Source: Candidatus Hodarchaeota archaeon (GTDB lineage Archaea; Asgardarchaeota; Heimdallarchaeia; Hodarchaeales; Hodarchaeaceae). From it: a DNA stretch of 35,839 nucleotides. Made by a program: the position numbers and the translations under genes. The stretch is from positions 1 to 35,839 of the forward strand of contig JAEOTM010000071.1 of the NCBI GenBank assembly GCA_016839815.1. The letters are read 5' to 3'. Numbering within the stretch: the stretch's first letter is position 1; the number at the start of each line of letters is the position of its first letter. The notes under the pieces are model-generated. The model worked only from the letters and a program-made list of their open reading frames with translations, was not told the origin of the DNA and ran no database searches. This document shows positions 944-12,589 of this stretch, piece by piece.

Positions 944-3139
944 TCATTCGTATAGAAAGAGCTTAATTTCATCCACAAGTTTATTTAATGCTCTTTTCTC
1001 ATCTCGTGGGAGTAATAGATCTTGAACATGAGGTTCTATGACATCGTCAATAGATCTAGCTTCTGCAACGTCAAATTCATATTTGAGTTCCATAGGGTCA
1101 ATAATTAATTCAAAGAACTTAGCTACTTTTCCAGGACGTGTAGCCCTCCCAACACGTTGGATTTGCTCTCTTCGATTTTTTGTACCAGAAACAATGATAA
1201 TAGTGTCAGCCGGAGCATCGAATCCTTCATTCAACATTTTTACTAAAATGAGTGTATTTATTTCCCTCTGCCGAAACTTATCAAGGAGAATATTGAACTC
1301 TTTATCATTAAGAACAGTTTCTCCTGTTAATAAAGTGGTAGTGATTTTTCTTTCTTTTAAAAATTTGTGAAGGATTTTAGCATGATTAATACGACTAGTA
1401 AAAATCAGTGTTTGAGAGGTTAAGGGGGATTCCAACAATTTTTGGACTGCAAACATCTTATACCTTGATTCTCGCGAGACTTTCCCATAGGAAGACTTGC
1501 CTTTTTGGTTAATGATAGTTTTTTCTTCAGAAGTCAAAGGAATATGAATTCGCTCTGAGTAAATTGGTGCAATAAATCCCTCTCGAGCGAGTAAACCATA
1601 ATTTATTTTGTGAATAATGGGGCCCATGCAGCTCACAACTAGACTTGAGTGTAAGGTTTTTTCGATGGTTGCACTCAACGCCATCCGTCGTGGGATCTCT
1701 AAATCCACTGCAATATGACGAAATGTCTCGGCCTGAATATGATGTGATTCATCTGCGATTAGTAATCCAAATTTATCTGTAAAGAAACCTATCGTATCTT
1801 TTACCAGAATTTTATCTCTAGAAACTTTATCCATTTCTTTTTTCTCTAGCGCGTGGAAATCCTGTAAGTATTGAGCTAATAATTGAAATGTAGAAATGAC
1901 AATTTGATATTGCCGAAAGGCTTTCTTCTGTCCAGTAAATATCCCAATTTCAGCAGATTGAACTCCAATAAACTTTCCAATTTGATCTATCCATTGATCA
2001 ACCAATGCAAGATTTGGAACTAATATTAATGTTCGTTGTTTAATTTGTCGAATTGCATCAATACCGATAATAGTTTTACCTGCTCCAGTAGGTAATTGGA
2101 TTGTCCCAAATTCCTGATTTTCAAACCATTTATCAATGCCGGCCTGTTGGTAAGAACGAAGTTCATAATCGTGCTTCATCTCTGTTTTCCATACTTTCTT
2201 ACTTCGTGCTGGAGTAAATGGTGTATAATTCAAGTCGAAAATGGATCGTGCTTTAGACTCCTTGATACTATGCTCCACCATTCGCCAAAAATGATTCGCT
2301 CGAAAAGCTGCCCAATAAGCGACCTCAATCTCCCGTTCCTCAATTTGAGTGATACAAGGTAGATAGTCTGAATTAGGATCATCTTCGGATCGGATTGCCA
2401 TATACCTGGCAAAAATATCAAACAAAGTATGAAACCATGTGTTAAATGCTTTATTCCATTTAATTCTTAGTTTTTCATCTATCGATTCTACCGTGATTGA
2501 GTATTTTTTATGGCCTGTTTCTGCAAGTTCGTCTAGTTTTTCTTTTGTCTCTGGGCTGTATTTGATTGTCACACCAGTTCTTTGTAAGAGGTCAAGATCT
2601 TCCTGAATAAGATGAGGAAATTGGAGAATAAATTTTGTAGGACGATGGGTTCGTTTATGTTCCCAGTACCCATTGTGCTTTCGCCAATTACGTTCCCAAA
2701 TTCGAAATTGCTCCCCTACCCAGGGAGTATAAAAAAATTTCCTATCATATTCCTCTGAATCTTCTTCCTTCTTGAGATATTCGAAATAATCCTCTACGTT
2801 TAAACTACGTGACCGTTCTTTCTTATAATGGGAACGTCGAATAGGGATCCATGCATTAATTTGTGTAAAGGGATACCAGGGGAAATCAACCATGAAACTA
2901 AAGTCATCTTGAATTTTTATCTGGAACTCATTCTTTTGTGAAGTAATGAAGTTTATCCAAGCTTCTTCTGTGACTGATGCACCTTCCATTCTTGGACTTT
3001 GTTTTCCACGTAATCCTAAGTTTGGGGATGAACATACATGTGTTCTAATTTTATGCCGACACAGGGGAGCAGAACATTTACTACAACGGTAAATCTTTGC
3101 ACCTGCTTCTGCGCATTCATTACAAATTTCTAAGCTAAT
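944..3139 (-). CDS. XPB/Rad25-like superfamily 2 (DExH) helicase with N-terminal Cys/His zinc finger; probable ATT start
   Basis: LRSYQQ Q-motif, LPTGAGKT (I), DESHH (II), SAT (III), QRVGRATR (VI). The frame is open for 50 further codons upstream of ATG 2989, encoding SLEICNECAEAGAKIYRCSKCSAPLCRHKIRTHVC. The in-frame upstream stop is reached with no ATG/GTG/TTG; ATT at 3139 lies 6 nt after GAGGG. Confidence 0.85.
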   Translation of the reverse strand: MSLEICNECAEAGAKIYRCSKCSAPLCRHKIRTHVCSSPNLGLRGKQSPRMEGASVTEEAWINFITSQKNEFQIKIQDDFSFMVDFPWYPFTQINAWIPIRRSHYKKERSRSLNVEDYFEYLKKEEDSEEYDRKFFYTPWVGEQFRIWERNWRKHNGYWEHKRTHRPTKFILQFPHLIQEDLDLLQRTGVTIKYSPETKEKLDELAETGHKKYSITVESIDEKLRIKWNKAFNTWFHTLFDIFARYMAIRSEDDPNSDYLPCITQIEEREIEVAYWAAFRANHFWRMVEHSIKESKARSIFDLNYTPFTPARSKKVWKTEMKHDYELRSYQQAGIDKWFENQEFGTIQLPTGAGKTIIGIDAIRQIKQRTLILVPNLALVDQWIDQIGKFIGVQSAEIGIFTGQKKAFRQYQIVISTFQLLAQYLQDFHALEKKEMDKVSRDKILVKDTIGFFTDKFGLLIADESHHIQAETFRHIAVDLEIPRRMALSATIEKTLHSSLVVSCMGPIIHKINYGLLAREGFIAPIYSERIHIPLTSEEKTIINQKGKSSYGKVSRESRYKMFAVQKLLESPLTSQTLIFTSRINHAKILHKFLKERKITTTLLTGETVLNDKEFNILLDKFRQREINTLILVKMLNEGFDAPADTIIIVSGTKNRREQIQRVGRATRPGKVAKFFELIIDPMELKYEFDVAEARSIDDVIEPHVQDLLLPRDEKRALNKLVDEIKLFLYE

Positions 3140-3373: not shown

Positions 3374-5590
3374 TTAATTTTTGGGAAATGTAAGGAGAAT
3401 TTCTGTTCCCAATCCCTTTCCTTTACTATAAGCGATTATTGATCCTCCATGAGAGTTCATGATTTCTCTAGAAAGGTACAGGCCGATTCCTGTCCCTTGT
3501 GTAGAGTATTCTGTTTCAATAGTAACGAATTGCTCAAAAATTTTTTCTAAATCCTTGGAATCGATACCTGCCCCGTTATCAGTTATATTGACCTCAATAC
3601 TCTTTTTTAAATTTTTAATTTGCACTTTTATTATCCTACCGTCCTTTGAACTATTTTTTATAGCATTATCAATGACATTGTCAAAAACCTGTTGAATTCT
3701 GTCACTATCAAGCTCATAGAGCTCGGGAGTACCTTCAATAAAGTTTTCAAAAGTAAAATCGAATTGATCACCAATTAAATTCTGATAAGGAGTAAGTATT
3801 TTTGTGATAAACTCTCTAAAATCTGTGGGTTCAAGATTGATCTGAAATAACCCTCGTTCTAATTGAGTAATTGCCTGACTATCAGAGATTAATCGTTCTA
3901 AACGGTAAAGGTTTTTTGTGACGATTGAGAATACATCATCTATTTGCTTGGCACTCATAGAATCGATTTTTTTCTGTAAAAATTCATTATACCCAAATAA
4001 CACGGTTAAGGGTGTTCTTAATTCATGATTAACCATTCTAATGAAATTATCACGCCTTTTCTGTAACTCAATTCTGATTTCTTCAGCCTGTTTTCTTTCT
4101 TCAACGTTTCTAAATATACCGATGTGAAATTTTTTGTCTTCAAGAGTTACTGGAGAGACATTGATATCAGCGTGAAAAAGGGTTCCATCTTTCTTTCGTA
4201 AGGGGATTTCTGTTGCAGATGTCAAGTTTTGTTGGTTGATCTCTATCATATCTTCTTCATAATTTTTATAAATTTGATCCTGACGTAGATCTGCTAAAAC
4301 TAAGGCATTTACTTCCTCCTGAGAGTATCCAAACATGTTACAAAAGGATTGATTAGCAAGGAATATTTCTCCGTCTTCAGGATTAACAAGTATTATTCCA
4401 TCAGTAACGTTATCAAAGATGGTTTTAAACCGTTTTTCTGACTCTCTTAGCTCTTTTTCGGTCATTTTGAGGTCAGTGATATCTAGAACAGATGCCGTTG
4501 ATTTAGCAGAAACTCCTTCCTCAATATTCCAATTCGCTCTTAATAATACCCATAGTTTTCTTCCAGATTTCGTCACAACTTGGTATTCTACCGTTTCGTC
4601 TATTTCCTCATTCGTAAGAAGCTTAGCTGATCTTTTCAACCAGATTTCCTTACTTTCCTCCGTCAACAATTCATAAAGGTTTAGAGAAGAAACCTCTTCT
4701 GCAGTAAATTCGAAAAGGTCTAGGAGAAGATCATTTGCAAATACAATCTGCGTTTTACCACTCGTGAAATCAAATTCAATTTCATAAATTCCTGTTGGTG
4801 CCTTTTTAACAAGCTGACGATAGCGCTGTTCACTTTCTTGGAGAGCTGTCTGAATTTTTTTCATATGAGAAATATCAAGAATTACTCCCCTCAAACCTAC
4901 AGGCTTTCCTTCTCTGAATATCGGACTAGAATAAATCAGTACAGGGAACTTTTTTCCATTTTTGTGGACAGCTGTGAATTCATGGTCATCGAATACCTCT
5001 CCTTTCATTATTCTGTCAATATTTGACCGAATTCGTGCCATATCTTCTGGTACAAACAGATGTGAAACATTGATCCCCAGCTTTAGTTCTTCTAGAATAT
5101 ACCCAAAAGTATCTAGACCTTTTTGATTAGCATAAGTTATCCTGCCAGCTGTATCGAGTTCAAAAACCGTTTGCGGTAATAATTCTGCTAATTCTTTTTT
5201 ACTTTGCTCACTATACTTTAATTGAATATCAAGAGCTTCTGCATGTAGGTACTGCCGGTAAAAACCGTAAATACCTAATAACGTACCAGTAAAAAAGAAA
5301 ATCATGTCAATATCATCAATGAAGTCAAGAGAAATCCATGTAACCGAATCAGGTGCGAATAATTCTTGAAAATCTTGCATTATATCAAAAAATACTGGTA
5401 TTAGGAGTAGACACAATCCAACAAGTGCCCAAGGTCCAGCACCGTGTCTAAAGGCGACATTTCTTTTCATACTATAATAAATGACAATTACAAGAGTGAA
5501 GATTAGGATAAAAGTGGCAATTTCTAAAATAAAATCAAAAAATTGAACGGGAGAAAGGCCTACTACTGTTAAGAATGAGTTTTGGGTCAT
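3374..5590 (-). CDS. Membrane-anchored multi-PAS sensor histidine kinase
   Basis: About 3 N-terminal TM segments and three PAS/PAC repeats (ending LDIS, LDIT, RNVE). H-box NHELRTPL, N-box NVIDNAIK, G1 DNGAGI, G2 GTGIGL. Confidence 0.95.
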   Translation of the reverse strand: MTQNSFLTVVGLSPVQFFDFILEIATFILIFTLVIVIYYSMKRNVAFRHGAGPWALVGLCLLLIPVFFDIMQDFQELFAPDSVTWISLDFIDDIDMIFFFTGTLLGIYGFYRQYLHAEALDIQLKYSEQSKKELAELLPQTVFELDTAGRITYANQKGLDTFGYILEELKLGINVSHLFVPEDMARIRSNIDRIMKGEVFDDHEFTAVHKNGKKFPVLIYSSPIFREGKPVGLRGVILDISHMKKIQTALQESEQRYRQLVKKAPTGIYEIEFDFTSGKTQIVFANDLLLDLFEFTAEEVSSLNLYELLTEESKEIWLKRSAKLLTNEEIDETVEYQVVTKSGRKLWVLLRANWNIEEGVSAKSTASVLDITDLKMTEKELRESEKRFKTIFDNVTDGIILVNPEDGEIFLANQSFCNMFGYSQEEVNALVLADLRQDQIYKNYEEDMIEINQQNLTSATEIPLRKKDGTLFHADINVSPVTLEDKKFHIGIFRNVEERKQAEEIRIELQKRRDNFIRMVNHELRTPLTVLFGYNEFLQKKIDSMSAKQIDDVFSIVTKNLYRLERLISDSQAITQLERGLFQINLEPTDFREFITKILTPYQNLIGDQFDFTFENFIEGTPELYELDSDRIQQVFDNVIDNAIKNSSKDGRIIKVQIKNLKKSIEVNITDNGAGIDSKDLEKIFEQFVTIETEYSTQGTGIGLYLSREIMNSHGGSIIAYSKGKGLGTEILLTFPKN

Positions 5591-5728: not shown

Positions 5729-6706
5729 TCACTCGTTTTCTAGAGCAGAGCCACATGTTTCACAAAACCGGTCTTCTTTAAGAACCATTTCACCACATTG
5801 TGAACAGTAGCGAAGAAAATCGTTAATTTGAACATCTGGAACGGTCATAAATTGTTCTAACGAAGCTTGAGCTCGTTCACCTGCTCTTCTTCTAACAGTG
5901 GCCATGTTGATAGTTTCTAGCTTCTTGAGGGGTTGCTTCAATAAGATAGCTAATTGGCGGGCATTAGCTGGTGCAGATCCCGCAGGATGATTATTAAAAT
6001 AAGTAAATATTTCTTTAGTAGCCTGGTCTTTGAGAGCTTCTATCTTCTCTTTCCAGACCAGTAATTCTTTCCGAGAATATAGGTAACGATACCATAATTT
6101 CAATCCATGACCATGGAGACGAATATATGAGAAATCAGCTGTAACAGGAGTAATAGGTGGTAAAAGAGGTTCATCCACAATGCAATAGGCAGCATTAAAT
6201 TTTGCTAGTAAGCTGATGGTTCGATTTACATGGGTTTTTCGAACCCAAGTTTTCTCTCGAAATTCTACAGCCAATTTTAATTCTGAAGGCCAATGTCTAA
6301 GGAATACAGCGAGTGCCTGTCGATTTTCATCTGAGAACTTAGGAGGAAGCTGAAGCAAGGCTGGACCCATTTTTTCTCGTAATCCAGTGGACATCGTATC
6401 TAGGAACCGTTCGAGATCTGAGTGAAAATCAATAAGGCGTTTTTCGTGGGTGATAAGTTTGGGAATTTTGAATGCAAATAAAAAATTGTCTGGAACCTGT
6501 TTTTCCCATCTTCGTACTACATTTAAGCGGGGAAAATGATAGAAACTTGTATTAATCTCTACAGTAGAGAAAACTTCCGAATACCAGGCAAGGCGCTGTT
6601 GTTCAGTGAGGATGGAGGGATAGAAAGCGATTTGGGTTTTTTCATTACGGGCATGCCAATCAGAATATCCAAAACCTGAGGTTCCAATTAATACTTTCGC
6701 AGTCAC
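5729..6706 (-). CDS. DUF72 (YecE-like TIM-barrel, putative nuclease) with C-terminal PIP box and zinc ribbon
   Basis: IGTSGF.Y.DW, VEINTSFY, FKIPKLITH, LLQLPP, AVEFR, YIRLHG and YFNN are DUF72 signatures. The tail has QASLEQFM followed by CSQC-x10-CETC. Confidence 0.9.
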   Translation of the reverse strand: MTAKVLIGTSGFGYSDWHARNEKTQIAFYPSILTEQQRLAWYSEVFSTVEINTSFYHFPRLNVVRRWEKQVPDNFLFAFKIPKLITHEKRLIDFHSDLERFLDTMSTGLREKMGPALLQLPPKFSDENRQALAVFLRHWPSELKLAVEFREKTWVRKTHVNRTISLLAKFNAAYCIVDEPLLPPITPVTADFSYIRLHGHGLKLWYRYLYSRKELLVWKEKIEALKDQATKEIFTYFNNHPAGSAPANARQLAILLKQPLKKLETINMATVRRRAGERAQASLEQFMTVPDVQINDFLRYCSQCGEMVLKEDRFCETCGSALENE

Positions 6707-6724
6707 TAGATCAGCCCAAATAGG

Positions 6725-6922
6725 TTATTTTGTTTCACTTTCTTGTTGGAGATGAAAAATTGAGCCAGAAATCGTAAAGGCCATACCAATCATTCCATAA
6801 ACAATAATTCTTGTTGACTCTAACACTGTAAGATCATATCCACCTGCTGTAATATCACTGAGTGCAAGGATAAAGAACAGGACTCCAATCGCCCAACAAA
6901 TGACATCTTGTCCATTAACCAT
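6725..6922 (-). CDS. Small two-TM membrane protein (65 aa), paralog of 7824-8039
   Basis: ATG at 6922 after SD GAGGAG; two hydrophobic helices; shares CWxxGxxFF and IVYGxxGxAxTISGSIFH with the 7824-8039 product. Confidence 0.75.
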   Translation of the reverse strand: MVNGQDVICWAIGVLFFILALSDITAGGYDLTVLESTRIIVYGMIGMAFTISGSIFHLQQESETK

Positions 6923-6933
6923 TTTTGCTCCTC

Positions 6934-7734
6934 TCAAATCCTACTTCTTCGTCTCCTATAAAAGAGAAATACTGCACCTATAGCTAGTACAACTCCAACG
7001 GTATCAATGGAAGTTATATCAGGACTTGTAGTCGGAGAAGTTGAATCTCCTTCGGTTGGGTTTAGAGTCTCCGTCGTCGTTAACGTTGTGGAACTTTGGG
7101 GAATATCAGTCTCAACTGTTGGATTCAGGGAAACCTGATAAGCTATACCTGCGAAACGGTGAAGTAAAATTGAGTATTGACCAGCAGACTCATTTTCATA
7201 ATGCCAGAATGCAATATCAATGGAATCCGTCAATTGCAGACCTAAATCAGCTAGTAAAAAGTAATATTCCACCGTCCGATTGGTGCTAATGTCAATTGCT
7301 ACAGAGTTCTGATAGTCTACATATTCGGGATTTGTTTTATTATTCAAGAAACTAGTTAAATTCCTTCCAGGAAAGATAGCTGAAAATGACCAGAATGGAT
7401 ATGTCTCGTACACGATCTGATACATAAGTATGTAAATCTCATTACTCGGTGTACGTATGGTAATATTGCCCATCAGAGATTTCCAGTAATCAAGTGGAGC
7501 AGCATAGTCCAAACGAATAAATAAGGTCGTATCATTTGCCGCTACAAATCCTTTTTGGATATCAATCCAGTATTCTGGATGAATATCTTCCTCTTCGAAG
7601 ATTGGTGTAATCCCATTCCAATCTGAGAAATCACCATCAATATTAATAGTTATTCCACTTCCCATACTTGGGGATACCAAGCTACTAATGATTAGAAGTA
7701 GCAATCCAAGATGTAAACTTGTTTTCTTCTTCAT
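6934..7734 (-). CDS. Secreted, C-terminally anchored surface protein with DOMON/CBM9-like N-terminal motif
   Basis: ATG 7734 after GGAGGAG; signal peptide MKKKTSLHLGLLLLIISSLV; IDGDFSDW motif; Thr-rich linker; ITS + TM helix + RRRR tail; several N-x-S/T sequons. Confidence 0.75.
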   Translation of the reverse strand: MKKKTSLHLGLLLLIISSLVSPSMGSGITINIDGDFSDWNGITPIFEEEDIHPEYWIDIQKGFVAANDTTLFIRLDYAAPLDYWKSLMGNITIRTPSNEIYILMYQIVYETYPFWSFSAIFPGRNLTSFLNNKTNPEYVDYQNSVAIDISTNRTVEYYFLLADLGLQLTDSIDIAFWHYENESAGQYSILLHRFAGIAYQVSLNPTVETDIPQSSTTLTTTETLNPTEGDSTSPTTSPDITSIDTVGVVLAIGAVFLFYRRRRSRI

Positions 7735-7823
7735 TATTTCTCCTCCTGTATTTGTCAAAACTTCCAGTTAAAAATATTCAGATGACAGACTGAGTTCAAA
7801 TGATCTCAATGCAGTTCACAATC

Positions 7824-8039
7824 TCACTCTGGGTTATGAGTATGGAATATTGACCCTGAAATTGTTAATGCAAGACCAACGAGTCCATATACAATGACAG
7901 TCGCTAGCTCACGAACTTCAATTGGATCCAATTGTGTGGAGTCTGCACCAATTCTATTTGCCGTAAAAAGAGCAAAGAGAAAGAATATTCCTCCAAGAAT
8001 CCAGCAGAATGTTTCTTTTATCATCCATTCACTCACCAA
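7824..8039 (-). CDS. Small two-TM membrane protein (about 70 aa), paralog of 6725-6922
   Basis: Strong SD AAGGAGG upstream; two hydrophobic helices; conserved IVYGLVGLALTISGSIFH. Confidence 0.75.
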   Translation of the reverse strand: MVSEWMIKETFCWILGGIFFLFALFTANRIGADSTQLDPIEVRELATVIVYGLVGLALTISGSIFHTHNPE

Positions 8040-8138
8040 GTGTTGTTACGCCTCCTTCGGTCTCCTGATTTATTAAGCTTAATCTATCGGAATGTCAGAT
8101 TTTGTCACAATCCCCATTTTCGTCATTTTCATTGATGT

Positions 8139-8155
8139 CTCTGACTGTATCAGAG
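8139..8155. promoter_or_regulatory. Palindrome CTCTGA-N5-TCAGAG just upstream of the PolB2 cassette; candidate operator
   Basis: Perfect 6-bp arms ending 12 nt before ATG 8168, inside the 128-nt divergent intergenic region. Confidence 0.35.
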
Positions 8156-8167
8156 TAATTAGCTCAG

Positions 8168-8989
8168 ATGAGTACAAGTACTTCGAGACAAATGAGTACT
8201 GATGCTGATCCATGGTCCTCGGCCTGGGAATTACAGCGAAGACCGAGATATAAATCAGGTGTTCTCGCTCTCGATGCGTTGATACATGACGGTATGATGC
8301 CTGGTAGCTTGTTTCTAATACAAGGCGATGTCCCTCGGAAATTACTTCGGCAATTCGTGACTAAAATTGTTATAGGTCTGTTAACCGTGAATGATCCCTC
8401 GGAGCTAGCTTTTATTGATGGGGCTAACTTATTTCCTTATTATGAAATAGCTTCTGAAGCACGAAGAACTGGATATGATCCACTGGTAATTCTGGATCGC
8501 ATTCAGTTATCACGGGCTTTCAATTTTCATCAAATGACTGAGATCATCACCACTAGACTTCCCAAACTCCTAGAGGTAAAAAAACAGCTCAAAATTGTCT
8601 TTATACCCCAAATATCGTCATTATACCTGTCTACGGAAGCATTAGAATATTTAGAATATGCAAATCTGTCACCAGCAGAAGGGGCGCTATCTGAATTAAC
8701 ACAAGCGATTGGAACTCTGAAGAGTCTGGCTTTACAACATAACTTGATGGTCATTATGACAGCTGCTAGCGCAACGGGATCAAAGACCAAAGGTCTCGGA
8801 GGGACGTATCTCACTCATTCAGCATCTTCTGTCATTCGGATGGCCTCCTCAGCAGAAAGCTCGGCCAAAGAATACGATATTCATTTTTCCCTGCAAAAAG
8901 ATCCAGCCCGGCCAGTAATTCAGCTGACGCACTCACATAGGCAAAAAAAACCATCTACTAGTCAAACATTACTGAATCGTTATTGGTGA
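8168..8989 (+). CDS. Catalytically inactive RadA/RecA-fold protein (ImuA-like partner of PolB2)
   Basis: RadA-like blocks SGVLALDALIHDG, FIDGANLF, LDRIQLSRAFNFHQM and GGTYLTHSAS. Walker A is replaced (QGDVPRKLL) and the Walker B Asp is lost (IVFIPQI). N-terminal WSSA; C-terminal QTLLNRYW. Confidence 0.85.
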   Translation: MSTSTSRQMSTDADPWSSAWELQRRPRYKSGVLALDALIHDGMMPGSLFLIQGDVPRKLLRQFVTKIVIGLLTVNDPSELAFIDGANLFPYYEIASEARRTGYDPLVILDRIQLSRAFNFHQMTEIITTRLPKLLEVKKQLKIVFIPQISSLYLSTEALEYLEYANLSPAEGALSELTQAIGTLKSLALQHNLMVIMTAASATGSKTKGLGGTYLTHSASSVIRMASSAESSAKEYDIHFSLQKDPARPVIQLTHSHRQKKPSTSQTLLNRYW

Positions 8990-8993
8990 TAAT

Positions 8994-9278
8994 ATGGGAC
9001 GAACCTTACCTTCCTATCGAATGGTGTTGGAACATGAACGTGACCTCTGGATAAAGCATTTTGCGAAACGATTACGAGAACCTTATCGTACAAGCTTTGA
9101 CTATCTTTGGGAGAAGGCATTTCAGTTAGCGGATGCCTCCTCGGCCAATACACGACCAGTTGCTCTAGACAACATTCTCATGAGTATGGTAGTGGCTCAA
9201 CAGGCAGAAATTCAGCTTTTGCAAAAAGATCTCAAGGTTTTGCAGAAACAAGTGAATGACAATAGTGAGTTGCTCTGA
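8994..9278 (+). CDS. Small helical PolB2-associated protein (arCOG07300-like)
   Basis: MGRTLPSYR N-terminus typical of the small gene found directly upstream of archaeal polB2; C-terminal coiled coil; 4-5 nt gaps to both neighbours; SD GGTGA overlaps the upstream stop. Confidence 0.8.
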   Translation: MGRTLPSYRMVLEHERDLWIKHFAKRLREPYRTSFDYLWEKAFQLADASSANTRPVALDNILMSMVVAQQAEIQLLQKDLKVLQKQVNDNSELL

Positions 9279-9283
9279 TTATA

Positions 9284-11518
9284 ATGGTTACCCAACGTGC
9301 ATGGCTACATGATGTAGCAGCTGCAAATTGGGGCGTACACACCTATTGGATTACATCAAAAGGAGGAATTAAGGCTTATTATCCAATGACAGTTGAGTTT
9401 TTCCTGGCAAAAACCGATCAAGAAACCCAAAAGCGTGTGTTAAGCCATCCCGAAGTCGAGGCAGTCGAAGAAATCTCTAAGTATGTGTCAATCCACGATT
9501 GGCAACCAAGTCCTGTTCTTCGAGTACGAGTGAATCCCACCAAGATACGAACAACCTTTGAGGATTTACGTAAATATTGGGGCAAATACCTCTATAATGC
9601 TGATCTCAGTATTTATCAGCAGTTTAGTTTTCAAACAGGACTTTTCCCCTATGTCTACGCGAAAATTAATGTAAAAAATGGACGCTTACAAGAGAACTGG
9701 AAGCTTCTCGAGCATTATCTACAGGCTGACTATCGCGTTGTTCCTTTCCGTACCCTTTGGATGCAACCATTCTTTGAAGAGCAAAATTTCGCACGAGGGG
9801 CGATTCAGGAAATACATATGCGACATTCCCTGGCAGATGAAGGAGAGGGGCCAATAATATTTGTAGAAGATACAGAAGCAGAGACTATACGGGAAAGTAT
9901 GATGTATCTCAACAAGTTTGATCCAGATATCTTGTTTACATCTGGTGGGGACACCTTTTTTCCGATATTGGCCCAACGAGCAACAGATCTGGGAATAGGA
10001 TATTTACATCCAGGCAGAGGAAGACGTAGACTGTATAGCTATATCAGAAAAAACTCTCAACCCCGTGGCCATAGTTACCAGTCGTATGGAAGAGTGTATT
10101 TTTCCCAACACGGAGTCTATTTTGACGGTGGACGTCATCATTATGATGTTGGAAATTCGTTCATGTGGAAAGAAGGAAATATTGATGGAATCCATGAACT
10201 TGTCCGGTTAGGGTGCTCTGACCCGCAACGAATTGCTCGAGCTACAATTGGTACCGCATTAACCGCTGTGCAGATGCGGACAGCTTATCGACGAAATATT
10301 CTGATTCCAGCAAGAAAAGCTGACAGTGAAGACTTTCGACCTGGTTCAACGATGATGAGCGATGTAGGAGGACTGGTATTTTCCCCTCAGGTAGGTTTCC
10401 ACCAGAACCTCGTAGAACTCGATTTTTTGTCCATGTATCCCTCAATCATGACATATCGAAACGTTAGTCCTGATACAATCAATTGTGGGTGCTGTAAGCA
10501 TGACCAACGGCAATTTGTCCCTGGAACGGATCACTATATTTGTACCCAACGACCAGGTTTGATTAGTCTAGCTTTAAAAAATGTTCTTGATAGAAGAGCT
10601 TATTTTAAAAGTAAACGGAACATTAAATCTTATGATCGTCGTCAGAAAGTCCTTAAATGGCTACTTGTATGCTCATTTGGATATCAAGGTTACCGTAATT
10701 CCCGTTTCGGACGTATTGAAGCACATGAGGCTATTTCTGCCTATGGTAGAGAGGCTTTAACTCGTACCAATCAAGTTGCTACTGAATTTGGACTTGAGGT
10801 AGTAGCTGGGATTGTAGATTCGATTTGGTTAAAAAATCCCAATAATACGCCTATTGAACAGTCGATTATCGATAAAATCTGCCAAAAAATTCAAGAAGAG
10901 GTAAAACTTCCGATCGAACATGCTACCAATTATCATTGGATTGTATTTCTTCCTAGAAGGCACGAAAAATCGATAGGTGTACTCAATCGCTATTACGGAT
11001 TGAAAACTACTGGTTCTTACAAGATTCGAGGCATTGAAATTCGTCAATCTAGTAGTCCATTATTTGTCAAAAAACTTCAGCGCCAGCTCTTGAAGATCCT
11101 GTCCACAGCACGTACACCAGAACAGTTTGAAGAGTGCGCTCATAAAGCCAAGAGAGTGATGCGCAAGTACTTAGCTGATTTGAAGGCAGGAAACATTCCG
11201 TTGAGCGATCTTTTAGTAACTATTCGTCCCTCACGAGGTCCAGATGAATATGTGAGTAATACACGCCAAGCTATCGCAGCTCGTCAATTGAAGACGGCAG
11301 GAGTGAAAGTGGAAGCAGGAATCAAACTCAGCTATCTCATTCTTGATGCTTATGCCTCTGATCCGACCAAGCGAGTGAAAGTCACTCAGCTCTTGACGGG
11401 TAAAGAGCAGTATGACTACCAGGAATATCGCAAGCTGTGTATTCGTGCCTATGAGGGATTAATCCCTCCGGAAATGGAGCAAAAAAGATTGACAATAGAT
11501 GAGTATCTTCTGGCATAG
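9284..11518 (+). CDS. polB2: Family B DNA polymerase, PolB2 (Dpo2) group
   Basis: Motif A DFLSMYPSIM, motif B KWLLVCSFGY, motif C AGIVDS (the first Asp of YGDTDS is lost, diagnostic of PolB2), KIRGIEIR; exonuclease motifs degenerate; operon context with dead RadA and the small protein. Confidence 0.92.
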   Translation: MVTQRAWLHDVAAANWGVHTYWITSKGGIKAYYPMTVEFFLAKTDQETQKRVLSHPEVEAVEEISKYVSIHDWQPSPVLRVRVNPTKIRTTFEDLRKYWGKYLYNADLSIYQQFSFQTGLFPYVYAKINVKNGRLQENWKLLEHYLQADYRVVPFRTLWMQPFFEEQNFARGAIQEIHMRHSLADEGEGPIIFVEDTEAETIRESMMYLNKFDPDILFTSGGDTFFPILAQRATDLGIGYLHPGRGRRRLYSYIRKNSQPRGHSYQSYGRVYFSQHGVYFDGGRHHYDVGNSFMWKEGNIDGIHELVRLGCSDPQRIARATIGTALTAVQMRTAYRRNILIPARKADSEDFRPGSTMMSDVGGLVFSPQVGFHQNLVELDFLSMYPSIMTYRNVSPDTINCGCCKHDQRQFVPGTDHYICTQRPGLISLALKNVLDRRAYFKSKRNIKSYDRRQKVLKWLLVCSFGYQGYRNSRFGRIEAHEAISAYGREALTRTNQVATEFGLEVVAGIVDSIWLKNPNNTPIEQSIIDKICQKIQEEVKLPIEHATNYHWIVFLPRRHEKSIGVLNRYYGLKTTGSYKIRGIEIRQSSSPLFVKKLQRQLLKILSTARTPEQFEECAHKAKRVMRKYLADLKAGNIPLSDLLVTIRPSRGPDEYVSNTRQAIAARQLKTAGVKVEAGIKLSYLILDAYASDPTKRVKVTQLLTGKEQYDYQEYRKLCIRAYEGLIPPEMEQKRLTIDEYLLA

Positions 11519-11578: not shown

Positions 11579-12589
11579 ATGAAGCCGACTCTTTCTCAAT
11601 TCCAAGGATGTCTCGTTGGCCAATGTCTTGGAGATGCATTAGGATTTCCAGTTGAAGGACATGGCCCCGAAACCTGTGCAAAATATGTTCAGGAGAATAT
11701 TCAGCATACTCCTGATAAGATGTTAGGACGAGCGCACTTTCCTTTTGGCCAGTATACTGATGATTCACAATTAGCACGTGAGCTCATCCAAAGCTATATT
11801 ACCAGTAATGGCCAGTTTCATCCCGAGGAGTATGCAACACGAATAGCTGCTATTTTTGCAGATAATCGTATAGTTGGAAGGGGTTTAGCTACTCATCAAG
11901 CGGCTGAAAATCTCATACATGGTGTTTCGTGGAAGGAGTCAGGTATTCCTGCTCCAAATGCGGGGAATGGGAGCGCAATGCGCGCTGCCCCTATTGGGAT
12001 GTTTTTTTTTGATAATATAGACCTTCTTACCAGACATGCGGTTGATCAAGGTCGAATTACACATACTGATCCTCGTTGTCATGCGGGTGCAATGGCAATT
12101 GCTGGAGCTGTGGCTCTTGCATTCCGCGAAGAGGAAATAATTCCTTCTACATTCCTACCTACATTAGTTGATTATGTAAAACCAATTGATAGTACTTTTT
12201 CCCGCGGACTTGAAAAAATGGAAATATGGTTGGATTGGGATATCAAAGCAGCAGTAAAAGTAATCGGTCCATATGGTCGAAAAACAGGATACGAAGAGAG
12301 TTATACTTGGCGGAATATCTCACCTTACGTTATTAGTAGTGTTTTATGGAGTCTGTACGCGTTTTTAAAAACCCCCGAATCTTATACAGAAGCAATTATC
12401 ACCTCTATTATTGTGGGAGGTGATGTTGATACAACAGCCGCCATGACTGGGGCAATCAGTGGAGCATACCTAGGAATTGATATGATTCCTAAAGAAATGG
12501 CACATCAATTGACAGACCAAGGTACATGGGGGTTTGAAGACTTAATGGAGCTTGCTAAAAAGTGTTATGCGATAAAAATGGGGAATTGA
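11579..12589 (+). CDS. ADP-ribosylglycohydrolase (DraG/ARH family)
   Basis: GDALGFPVE, YTDDSQ, GNGSAMRAAPIG, THxDP and GGDVDTTAAMTGAISGA motifs. Confidence 0.93.
   Translation: MKPTLSQFQGCLVGQCLGDALGFPVEGHGPETCAKYVQENIQHTPDKMLGRAHFPFGQYTDDSQLARELIQSYITSNGQFHPEEYATRIAAIFADNRIVGRGLATHQAAENLIHGVSWKESGIPAPNAGNGSAMRAAPIGMFFFDNIDLLTRHAVDQGRITHTDPRCHAGAMAIAGAVALAFREEEIIPSTFLPTLVDYVKPIDSTFSRGLEKMEIWLDWDIKAAVKVIGPYGRKTGYEESYTWRNISPYVISSVLWSLYAFLKTPESYTEAIITSIIVGGDVDTTAAMTGAISGAYLGIDMIPKEMAHQLTDQGTWGFEDLMELAKKCYAIKMGN

Follow-up and report, generated by a model that had tools for sequence, protein, structure and literature searches.

Candidate clamp-binding motifs in a DUF72 protein and the neighboring PolB2 mutasome operon of a Hodarchaeales archaeon

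DUF72 proteins (UPF0759, PF01904), such as Escherichia coli YecE, Bacillus subtilis YunF, and Thermotoga maritima TM1631 (1VPQ), are widespread in bacteria and archaea, and crystal structures have been available since 2004. To our knowledge, the family has no assigned function. Genes for these proteins occur near the operons of another system, the PolB2 mutasome, which consists of an inactivated RadA (iRadA), a small protein (PPB2), and the error-prone B-family DNA polymerase PolB2. This operon has been described, and its products modeled as a heteropentamer, using a data set that included Asgard operons (Timinskas, Timinskas & Venclovas 2025, PMC11791011). According to the same study, clamp-binding motifs are found at the C-termini of iRadA, less often at those of PolB2, and “rarely in both”, and genes encoding SRAP and DUF72 (the latter likened to UVDE) are modestly enriched within five genes of polB2, DUF72 being present in 119 of about 1823 neighborhoods. 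Here, we describe a stretch of 35,839 nucleotides from a Candidatus Hodarchaeota archaeon (GenBank assembly GCA_016839815.1, contig JAEOTM010000071.1; referred to as the window), in which a DUF72 gene (5729–6706, minus strand) lies near an operon of this type. The DUF72 protein carries a conserved motif that resembles a PCNA-interacting protein (PIP) box, and comparison with its relatives suggests that the DUF72 family is most likely a family of sliding-clamp-tethered enzymes acting on DNA. We consider it probable that the locus comprises two separate damage modules that are neighbors by descent and perhaps cooperate loosely, with DUF72 as the clamp-tethered DNA enzyme of one of them.

The DUF72 protein of the window matches PF01904 at 6.5e-65 over profile positions 1–215 of 217, i.e., over the full-length barrel. 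Compared with the family as described, it has two additions, namely a PIP-like motif in a linker and a four-cysteine zinc ribbon. The motif, QASLEQFM (residues 280–287; 5846–5869, minus strand), lies in a disordered linker and starts 46 residues from the end of the protein, so that 38 residues follow it, including the ribbon (residues 300–322; 5741–5809, minus strand; PF13240, Zn_Ribbon_1, 4.5e-6). Relative to the PIP consensus, Qxx[LIM]xx[FYW][FYW], the Q, L, and F are present, and the last residue, M, falls outside the consensus (M, L, I, or F in orthologs). In 14 orthologs with 54–86% identity, Q280, S282, L283, and F286 are invariant while the neighboring linker is variable, and the ribbon cysteines C301, C304, C315, and C318 are likewise invariant. 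The AlphaFold2 model of the protein has a predicted local distance difference test score (pLDDT) of 79, which falls below 50 at residues 283–289, in the motif linker. The combination of PIP-like motif and ribbon is restricted to Hodarchaeales orthologs.

Two further proteins of the locus have motifs of this type. iRadA ends in QTLLNRYW (8963–8986, plus strand), a canonical PIP box that matches the consensus in full and sits at the extreme C-terminus, and the C-terminus of PolB2 has a PIP-like tail lacking the Q, RLTIDEYL (11486–11509, plus strand). The original prediction had placed all three motifs near the C-termini of their proteins. Its coordinates were exact, and the iRadA and PolB2 motifs are indeed terminal, whereas the DUF72 motif is internal, preceding the zinc ribbon. 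Conservation in orthologs had been named beforehand as a test, and all three motifs turned out to be conserved: iRadA orthologs end in QxPLTxFW or QxSLTxFW, and every PolB2 ortholog has the tail pattern x[LPQ]T[IL][DE]x[FY][LWF], which is kept even in PolB2 proteins of another family with 28–36% identity (SLTSFL at the very end, SLETFL).

The frequency of such motifs was measured over 3423 open reading frames (ORFs) of the genome, five of which have the strict Q-type motif within their last 12 residues. They encode FEN1, a PolB, iRadA, a second DUF72 paralog, and an iron-dependent alcohol dehydrogenase (C19:2278–3414). We read the last of these as a chance match, which corresponds to about one false hit in five. 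Other proteins of the genome known as PCNA clients served as calibrators, FEN1 ending in QNTLDKFFS, one PolB in QVNLMEFFS, another PolB in IIPLTEFFHLES, and RNase HII in REKLDKYF. The genome has a single PCNA gene, of the homotrimer type. Of all the proteins, 1.5% have a relaxed Q-motif like that of DUF72 among their last 50 residues, and 3.7% have a Q-less motif like that of PolB2 among their last 12. Because the strict C-terminal motif is limited to 5 of the 3423 ORFs, the PIP box of iRadA is, judged by its sequence, significant on its own; the motifs of DUF72 and PolB2 appear credible only through their conservation in orthologs.

Across the DUF72 family, this conservation extends well beyond the genus. 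Distant archaeal DUF72 proteins (from Nitrososphaerales, Thermoproteales, Bathyarchaeia, and other Asgards) terminate exactly at the position of the Hodarchaeales motif, with tails such as QKKLDSFF and QIGLSEFFRF (both at the very end), QSQLTRWI, and EGSILEFV. The pattern [LIM]xx[FYW]h occurs within the last 15 residues in 49 of 74 distant archaeal DUF72 clusters, against a genome background of 11.7% and 1.6 of 74 for shuffled tails. Among 150 DUF72 representatives (50% identity clusters), 17 have Qxx[LIMV]xx[FYW] within the last 14 residues (1.2 expected) and six have a terminal Qxx[LM]F (0.18 expected); since the tails are homologous, these counts reflect conservation and not independent events. 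In bacteria, the tails take another form, as in Enterococcus faecalis EF0366 (ending in KQLDLF), Bacillus (EQLNLFE), and Listeria (MQMDLFSE), and Q[LMIV]x[LMI]F, a consensus for binding the β-clamp, terminates 115 of 118 Enterococcaceae-type DUF72 clusters. The DUF72 proteins of Bradyrhizobium, Streptomyces, and Hymenobacter stop at the barrel and have no clamp motif. DUF72 proteins thus seem recurrently to bear whichever clamp motif is used in the domain of life to which they belong, archaeal members having a PIP and bacterial ones Qxx[LM]F/QLxLF, and such a switch in motif type would be hard to explain otherwise. The idea that the PIP-like motif of DUF72 is a specialization for the PolB2 cassette finds no support, as the tag is a family-wide trait that is also present on paralogs far from polB2. 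No literature linking DUF72, YecE, or YunF to the clamp was found, including in a 2024 β-clamp review, in a search that did not cover subscription journals.

Other DUF72 forms were encountered in the course of this comparison. The second paralog mentioned above (G000:C36:49433–50266, plus strand; L085:1934–2767) has 277 residues, about 31% identity, and no ribbon, and it ends in a canonical PIP box, QMTLQEFFS; its gene is unlinked to polB2 and present in most genomes of the genus. Longer forms of approximately 390–400 residues (P0050, P0056, P0075, P0085, and P0127, among others; L136:4287–5468) have, where the barrel ends, a PIP-like motif (ESKLEAFV, VESLSIYM, or STLENFAE), followed by a C-terminal domain of approximately 110 residues that ends in a CxH-containing, SWIM-like segment. 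The order barrel–PIP–domain in these proteins parallels the order barrel–PIP–ribbon in the window.

The genes at 8168–11518 are a textbook member of the published PolB2 mutasome operon, iRadA-PPB2-PolB2, and share the three genes and their order with the group 1a systems (Makarova 2014, PMC4104785; PMC11791011). All three are on the plus strand, with iRadA (8168–8989) first, followed after 4 nucleotides by a PPB2-type protein of 94 residues (8994–9278) and, after another 5, by PolB2 (9284–11518). Further features in common with the systems described in PMC11791011 are the inactivated ATPase, the GIVDS polymerase motif, the clamp motif at the C-terminus of iRadA, and the presence of DUF72 nearby. 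In a Pfam profile search, iRadA gave a weak Rad51 match (PF08423, 7.8e-6). When it is aligned with the true RadA of the genome (C9:37687–38709), Walker A (GENGCGKT) falls opposite GDV and PRKL, separated by a gap of three positions, and Walker B (IIVDS) opposite VFIPQ; iRadA has no G....GK[ST] and lacks the N-terminal helix-hairpin-helix domain, which bears out the prediction of a “dead” RadA. PolB2 matches PF00136 at 1.1e-27 and NCBIfam PRK05761 at 7e-107 (about 1e-105 when the family assignments of the original prediction, all of which stood, were checked). Its motif C reads GIVDS instead of DTDS, the first Asp being replaced, and motif A (LDFLSMYPS) is retained.

Within the genus, iRadA orthologs from 15 genomes always immediately precede the small gene and then PolB2, the operon is always tight, and PolB2 orthologs are 60–90% identical. 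Searches of Pfam and NCBIfam with the 94-residue protein gave no model match; the gene is kept in 13 relatives, always between iRadA and PolB2, and small ORFs homologous to it by BLASTP occupy the same position in PolB2 loci of Bathyarchaeia and bacteria. In several members of the genus (L012–L014, L044; G014, G007, G005), PolB2 carries an insertion of approximately 530 residues between query residues 465 and 466, giving open frames of 1275–1288 residues. Located shortly before motif C, the insertion is presumably an intein.

The locus differs from the published description in two respects. First, the window and the other Asgard loci that we examined have PIP-like tails on both iRadA and PolB2, as in Lokiarchaeia-type loci, in which iRadA ends in NMTLDLWF and PolB2 in QKDLSCFI; double tagging of the two proteins thus looks usual in Asgards. 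Second, DUF72 of the window bears a PIP-like motif and a zinc ribbon, and DUF72 was not inspected for clamp motifs in PMC11791011. That publication already contains the mutasome, the clamp motifs of iRadA and PolB2, and the enrichment of DUF72, and the novelty originally claimed for the locus is in part unsupported. The right arm adds one more member to a system already known, and the association of DUF72 with polB2 is not new.

The region upstream of the operon was compared with the Orc1-2 damage-response element of Sulfolobales, ANTTTC, which has a 20-bp consensus, AATAGTTTCRGWDTACTCWS, located at −23 to −55 (PMC6061795), and which controls dpo2 in Sulfolobus. The conserved element of the window (8116–8155, plus strand) lies approximately 43 nucleotides upstream of iRadA and also contains ATTTTC, at 8116–8121 and again at 8125–8130, followed by the two halves of an inverted repeat, CTCTGA (8139–8144) and TCAGAG (8150–8155). 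A block of approximately 40 nucleotides with the repeat CTCTGA-n5-TCAGAG is present once upstream of iRadA in all 15 loci of the genus, and its consensus, CATTTTCGGTGATCTCTC, fits the extended Orc1-2 box of S. islandicus. When this extended box was searched as a regular expression, ANTTTCRGWDNNCTCWS, it was found in 7 of the 15 iRadA promoters, as compared with four sites in the whole 4.2-Mb genome; counts of the bare ANTTTC did not discriminate. Because the conserved element resembles the damage-response box of Sulfolobus, the PolB2 operon is plausibly damage-inducible, although the two elements belong to different phyla. It is also possible that the element forms an RNA hairpin, as in several relatives its downstream arm can pair with a GGAGG-type ribosome-binding stretch if G-U pairs are allowed.

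Two other matches to the block were noted. One genome (G003, L035:8873–8892) has a second copy between iRadA and PPB2, with a position weight matrix score of 20.4. The second-best match in the genome lies 76 nucleotides upstream of an orc1/cdc6 gene (G000:C30:28511–29749, minus strand; L082/L086), one of four paralogs, just 5′ of a TTTAAAT box. We claim no regulon on the basis of this site, as the match is kept in only the two closest relatives that could be scored (G013 and G018) and not in 15 others.

A third component of the region is an XPB/Rad25-like superfamily 2 helicase (944–2989, minus strand; ResIII at 1.8e-27, Helicase_C, and ERCC3_RAD25_C at 2.7e-6), whose 14 best matches in the PDB are all XPB/RAD25 proteins, from 2.6e-27 (2fwr) to 3e-15. 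The helicase gene is the constant neighbor of the ribbon-bearing DUF72 gene, on the same strand, in every genome of the genus that possesses it; in the window, a PAS histidine kinase gene (3374–5590) has been inserted between the two. This arrangement is reminiscent of the archaeal XPB–Bax1 helicase–nuclease pair, in that the gene for an XPB-family helicase is again paired with that for a putative nuclease. The partner is DUF72 and not Bax1, however, the pairing is known from gene adjacency in this genus only, and the helicase of the window has a different N-terminal region of 270 residues, with a possible Cys-rich extension. Regarding this extension, the frame upstream of the first canonical start codon (2990–3139 of the window, minus strand; L045:4540–4740, minus strand) encodes a Cys/His-rich segment (ICNxCAE followed by YRCSKCSAPLCRHxIRTHVC) that is near-identical in G000 and G007; in G000, no ATG, GTG, or TTG precedes it, and translation probably begins at a non-canonical codon still further 5′. 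A PIP motif on the helicase was considered as well and discarded, as the spacing of its conserved tail (VVDDIKISFY or VDEIKLFLYE) is incompatible with a PIP box.

The linkage between DUF72 and the PolB2 operon was surveyed in 21 genomes of the genus in addition to the window’s own. In 12 of 15 contigs, the ribbon-bearing DUF72 gene lies 0.3–10 kb from iRadA, always in divergent orientation, the distances being 0.3 kb (in G013), 0.5, 1.35, 1.46 (the window), 2.8, 3.3, 4.7, 5.3, 7.4, 8.5, 9.7, and 9.8 kb. Only in G013 do the two genes diverge with nothing but 325 bp separating them. Three genomes (G002, G006, and G010) lack the helicase, the ribbon-bearing DUF72, and the cassette together, and because the three are neighbors, this joint absence could be due to a single deletion. 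In a wider survey, 80 PolB2 loci from archaea and bacteria were fetched, 12 of which have DUF72 within 10 kb of polB2; fewer than one would be expected by chance, according to a rough estimate of our own based on one or two DUF72 copies per genome. Five of the 12 are from Bathyarchaeia, where two of the DUF72 proteins end in QSNLGSFLS and QMHLGSFFS. Four bacterial phyla have DUF72 inside the operon: it is immediately upstream of iRadA on the same strand in Kryptoniota and Ignavibacteria, and it immediately follows PolB2 in Nitrospirota (two tandem DUF72 copies) and Sumerlaeia (tail QTDLFG). Both Dpo2 and DUF72 are present in Sulfolobus acidocaldarius and S. islandicus.

Structural comparison places the DUF72 model close to solved members of the family (Z 24–25 to 1vpy and 1vpq; 1vpq at 1.6e-37 by profile), with a superposition on E. 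faecalis EF0366 (1VPY/1ZTV; superposed on 1vpy) at Z 25.2 and a root-mean-square deviation (rmsd) of 2.4 over 232 residues. The next neighbors are endonuclease IV (EndoIV; 5zhz, Z 15.2, rmsd 3.3, 216 aligned residues), MbnB (Z about 15), Sulfolobus acidocaldarius UVDE in complex with (6-4) photoproduct DNA (4gle, Z 14.0), and sugar epimerases (Z 13–14). DUF72 belongs to the same barrel superfamily as UVDE and EndoIV (AP endonuclease 2/xylose-isomerase-like TIM barrels), and the ends of its strands carry numerous invariant His, Glu, and Asp residues, as would be compatible with metal binding; its identity to these nucleases is about 10%. Residues E44, E50, H87, E148, D178, E179, H198, H200, N238, N239, and H240 are invariant. 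Because sugar epimerases/isomerases and MbnB are tied with EndoIV and UVDE in Z, the fold alone is not decisive for a nuclease. A DNA substrate is favored because of the clamp tags and the polymerase-operon contexts, and we lean, if only slightly, toward DUF72 being a metal-dependent endonuclease that is tethered to the clamp and has damaged or abasic DNA as its substrate, an assignment in which we infer both clamp binding and catalysis.

Under the reading that we consider probable, the PolB2 mutasome would be tethered to homotrimeric PCNA by the canonical PIP box of iRadA and the degenerate, Q-less PIP of PolB2. DUF72 would be a TIM-barrel enzyme with a linker PIP and a zinc ribbon, whose partner in the genus may be the XPB-like helicase rather than the polymerase operon, and whose likeliest activity would be that of a metal-dependent damage- or apurinic/apyrimidinic-type endonuclease of the EndoIV/UVDE barrel superfamily. 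It could supply or process lesion-containing substrate for the mutasome, a cooperation that is suggested by its recurrent but facultative placement beside or inside PolB2 operons. One may go further and take DUF72 to be a clamp-tethered damage endonuclease in both prokaryotic domains, making or processing the nick or gap for resynthesis by PolB2 in a clamp-organized, error-prone “alternative excision repair”, with the XPB-like helicase aiding in Hodarchaeales in the manner of XPB–Bax1; we regard this extension as doubtful.

A number of observations weigh against the reading of two damage modules, and they do so from several sides. At the level of the family, at least 57 of the 150 DUF72 representatives are barrel-only and tail-less, so that clamp tethering is not universal, and the conserved tails are, as noted, products of shared descent. 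At the level of the genome, DUF72 is unlinked to the operon in three cases, 730 kb away in G015 and on separate contigs in G007 and G012. Where the two are linked, the genes between them are unrelated (a GH38 mannosidase, Ras/Arf GTPases, TrmB, CheC, and NosD), and all seven archaeal DUF72 neighborhoods inspected outside the genus contain neither PolB2 nor a helicase. Over 234 kb of loci, a position weight matrix built from the 15 iRadA upstream blocks detected no comparable site before either the DUF72 or the helicase gene, and the window’s own copy of the element is four positions off the Sulfolobus consensus. Several of these observations are what one would expect if DUF72 served PCNA in a general, housekeeping capacity, as FEN1 and RNase HII do, and inherited its position near the PolB2 operon without being its partner: anything from 0.3 to 10 kb of unrelated sequence separates the two, three genomes have them unlinked, it is the helicase that stays next to DUF72, the two arms have no promoter element in common, and the PIP-bearing second paralog, like the seven distant contexts, is away from polB2. 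We see some merit in this explanation and rate it as possible at best, as it does not fit well with the presence of DUF72 near polB2 in 12 of the 80 loci, which span many phyla, its position inside the operon in the four bacterial phyla named above, the 119 of about 1823 neighborhoods in PMC11791011, or the joint absence of the three modules from three genomes of the genus. Because 12 of 80 PolB2 loci have DUF72 and yet the seven contexts examined from the DUF72 side lack PolB2, the association is real but facultative. DUF72 does recur next to polB2 in different lineages; within the genus, the linkage is loose.

Further points concern clamp binding and activity. The complex of host PCNA (residues 1–262) with the C-terminal part of DUF72 (residues 258–325) was predicted with an ipSAE of 0.55, as compared with 0.02 for the best control, with an agreement between runs of at least 62% of contacts and a partner pLDDT of at least 55. 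In calibration, 58 of 80 solved complexes passed this ipSAE mark, as did 2 of 110 mismatched pairs, but only seven of the 80, together with both mismatches, passed with a score of 0.60 or lower. Passes at or below 0.60 are wrong in more cases than they are right, except where the interaction was a likely one to begin with. Complexes of PIP peptides with PCNA have been solved abundantly, and the pass may mirror a likeness to these. The prediction accordingly lends weak support to binding of the DUF72 tail to host PCNA. As for activity, Foldseek and VIA-align could not separate the nuclease from the sugar-isomerase relatives of DUF72. In two Nitrososphaerales contigs (L074:5676–9652 and one ENA contig), DUF72 follows queD (PTPS), queC, and folE2 (GCHY-1) on the same strand; the run continues with a conserved gene of approximately 262 residues, and the order possibly indicates a link to 7-deazaguanine metabolism or modified DNA.

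These last observations could be taken to mean that DUF72 is a small-molecule enzyme, acting on sugars or phospho-sugars or on a 7-deazapurine-related compound, and that its motif serves oligomerization or barrel packing and is no clamp tag. Sugar epimerases and isomerases dominate the structural neighbors, and the many tail-less family members and the weak complex prediction would fit as well. We nevertheless think this very improbable. The type of motif follows the domain of life and matches the requirement of each clamp, a strict PIP at the terminus is, in this genome, otherwise a hallmark of FEN1, PolB, and iRadA, the motif is in a low-confidence linker off the barrel, and DUF72 is embedded in polymerase operons.

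The original prediction envisaged a tighter connection, namely a co-regulated divergon in which DUF72, iRadA, and PolB2 together occupy all three sites of a single PCNA trimer, serving as an incise-and-resynthesize toolbelt. Two arms do face away from an intergenic gap of 128 nucleotides (8040–8167), as predicted. DUF72 does not border this gap, however; it comes fourth in the left arm, and three genes for membrane or secreted proteins are closer to the gap. In most relatives, kilobases of unrelated genes lie between the arms, and the promoter element is on the iRadA side only, so that neither the divergon nor the co-regulation is supported. The toolbelt is compatible with the conservation of all three motifs, with the single homotrimer-type PCNA gene, with the directly divergent genes of G013, and with the association of DUF72 and polB2 in other lineages. 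Nonetheless, iRadA and PolB2 are already parts of one published heteropentamer, which makes two of the three “tools” one machine, and a homotrimeric PCNA lacks site specificity, with FEN1, two PolBs, RNase HII, and the second DUF72 competing for its sites. Considering both sides, we judge the toolbelt improbable.

The three genes that part DUF72 from the gap (6725–6937, 6934–7758, and 7824–8039, all minus strand) are no part of the repair system. The first and third encode paralogous proteins of approximately 70 residues with two transmembrane segments each, and the second encodes a secreted protein with a Thr/Ser-rich stalk, a transmembrane anchor, and an RRRRSRI tail; none of the three matched a family in Pfam or NCBIfam. 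They are missing from G013 and partially present in G020 and G018, and the remaining relatives have other, unrelated genes in this position. Because their presence differs among the closest relatives, they look like an insertion into an ancestral divergent DUF72/iRadA pair. On the other side of the operon, an ADP-ribosylglycohydrolase gene (11579–12589, plus strand) starts 60 nucleotides downstream of PolB2 on the same strand. Of the relatives, G018 alone keeps it in this position, which in G013 is taken by another gene. The runs listed as containing the stretch include no RNA run and are limited to four marine-sediment DNA runs, all of which come from one study.

Apart from its DUF72 protein, the locus is an ordinary member of a published system. 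For the PolB2 mutasome, it indicates that the Asgard versions seem to dock on PCNA through both iRadA and PolB2, that their promoter carries an element like the damage switch of Sulfolobus, and that they may draw on an accessory nuclease. For DUF72, the combination of a clamp tag with placement in polymerase operons leads to a specific and cheap hypothesis, namely that these proteins would act on damaged DNA in a clamp-dependent manner, and DUF72 is present in tractable organisms such as S. acidocaldarius, Methanosarcina acetivorans, B. subtilis, and E. faecalis.

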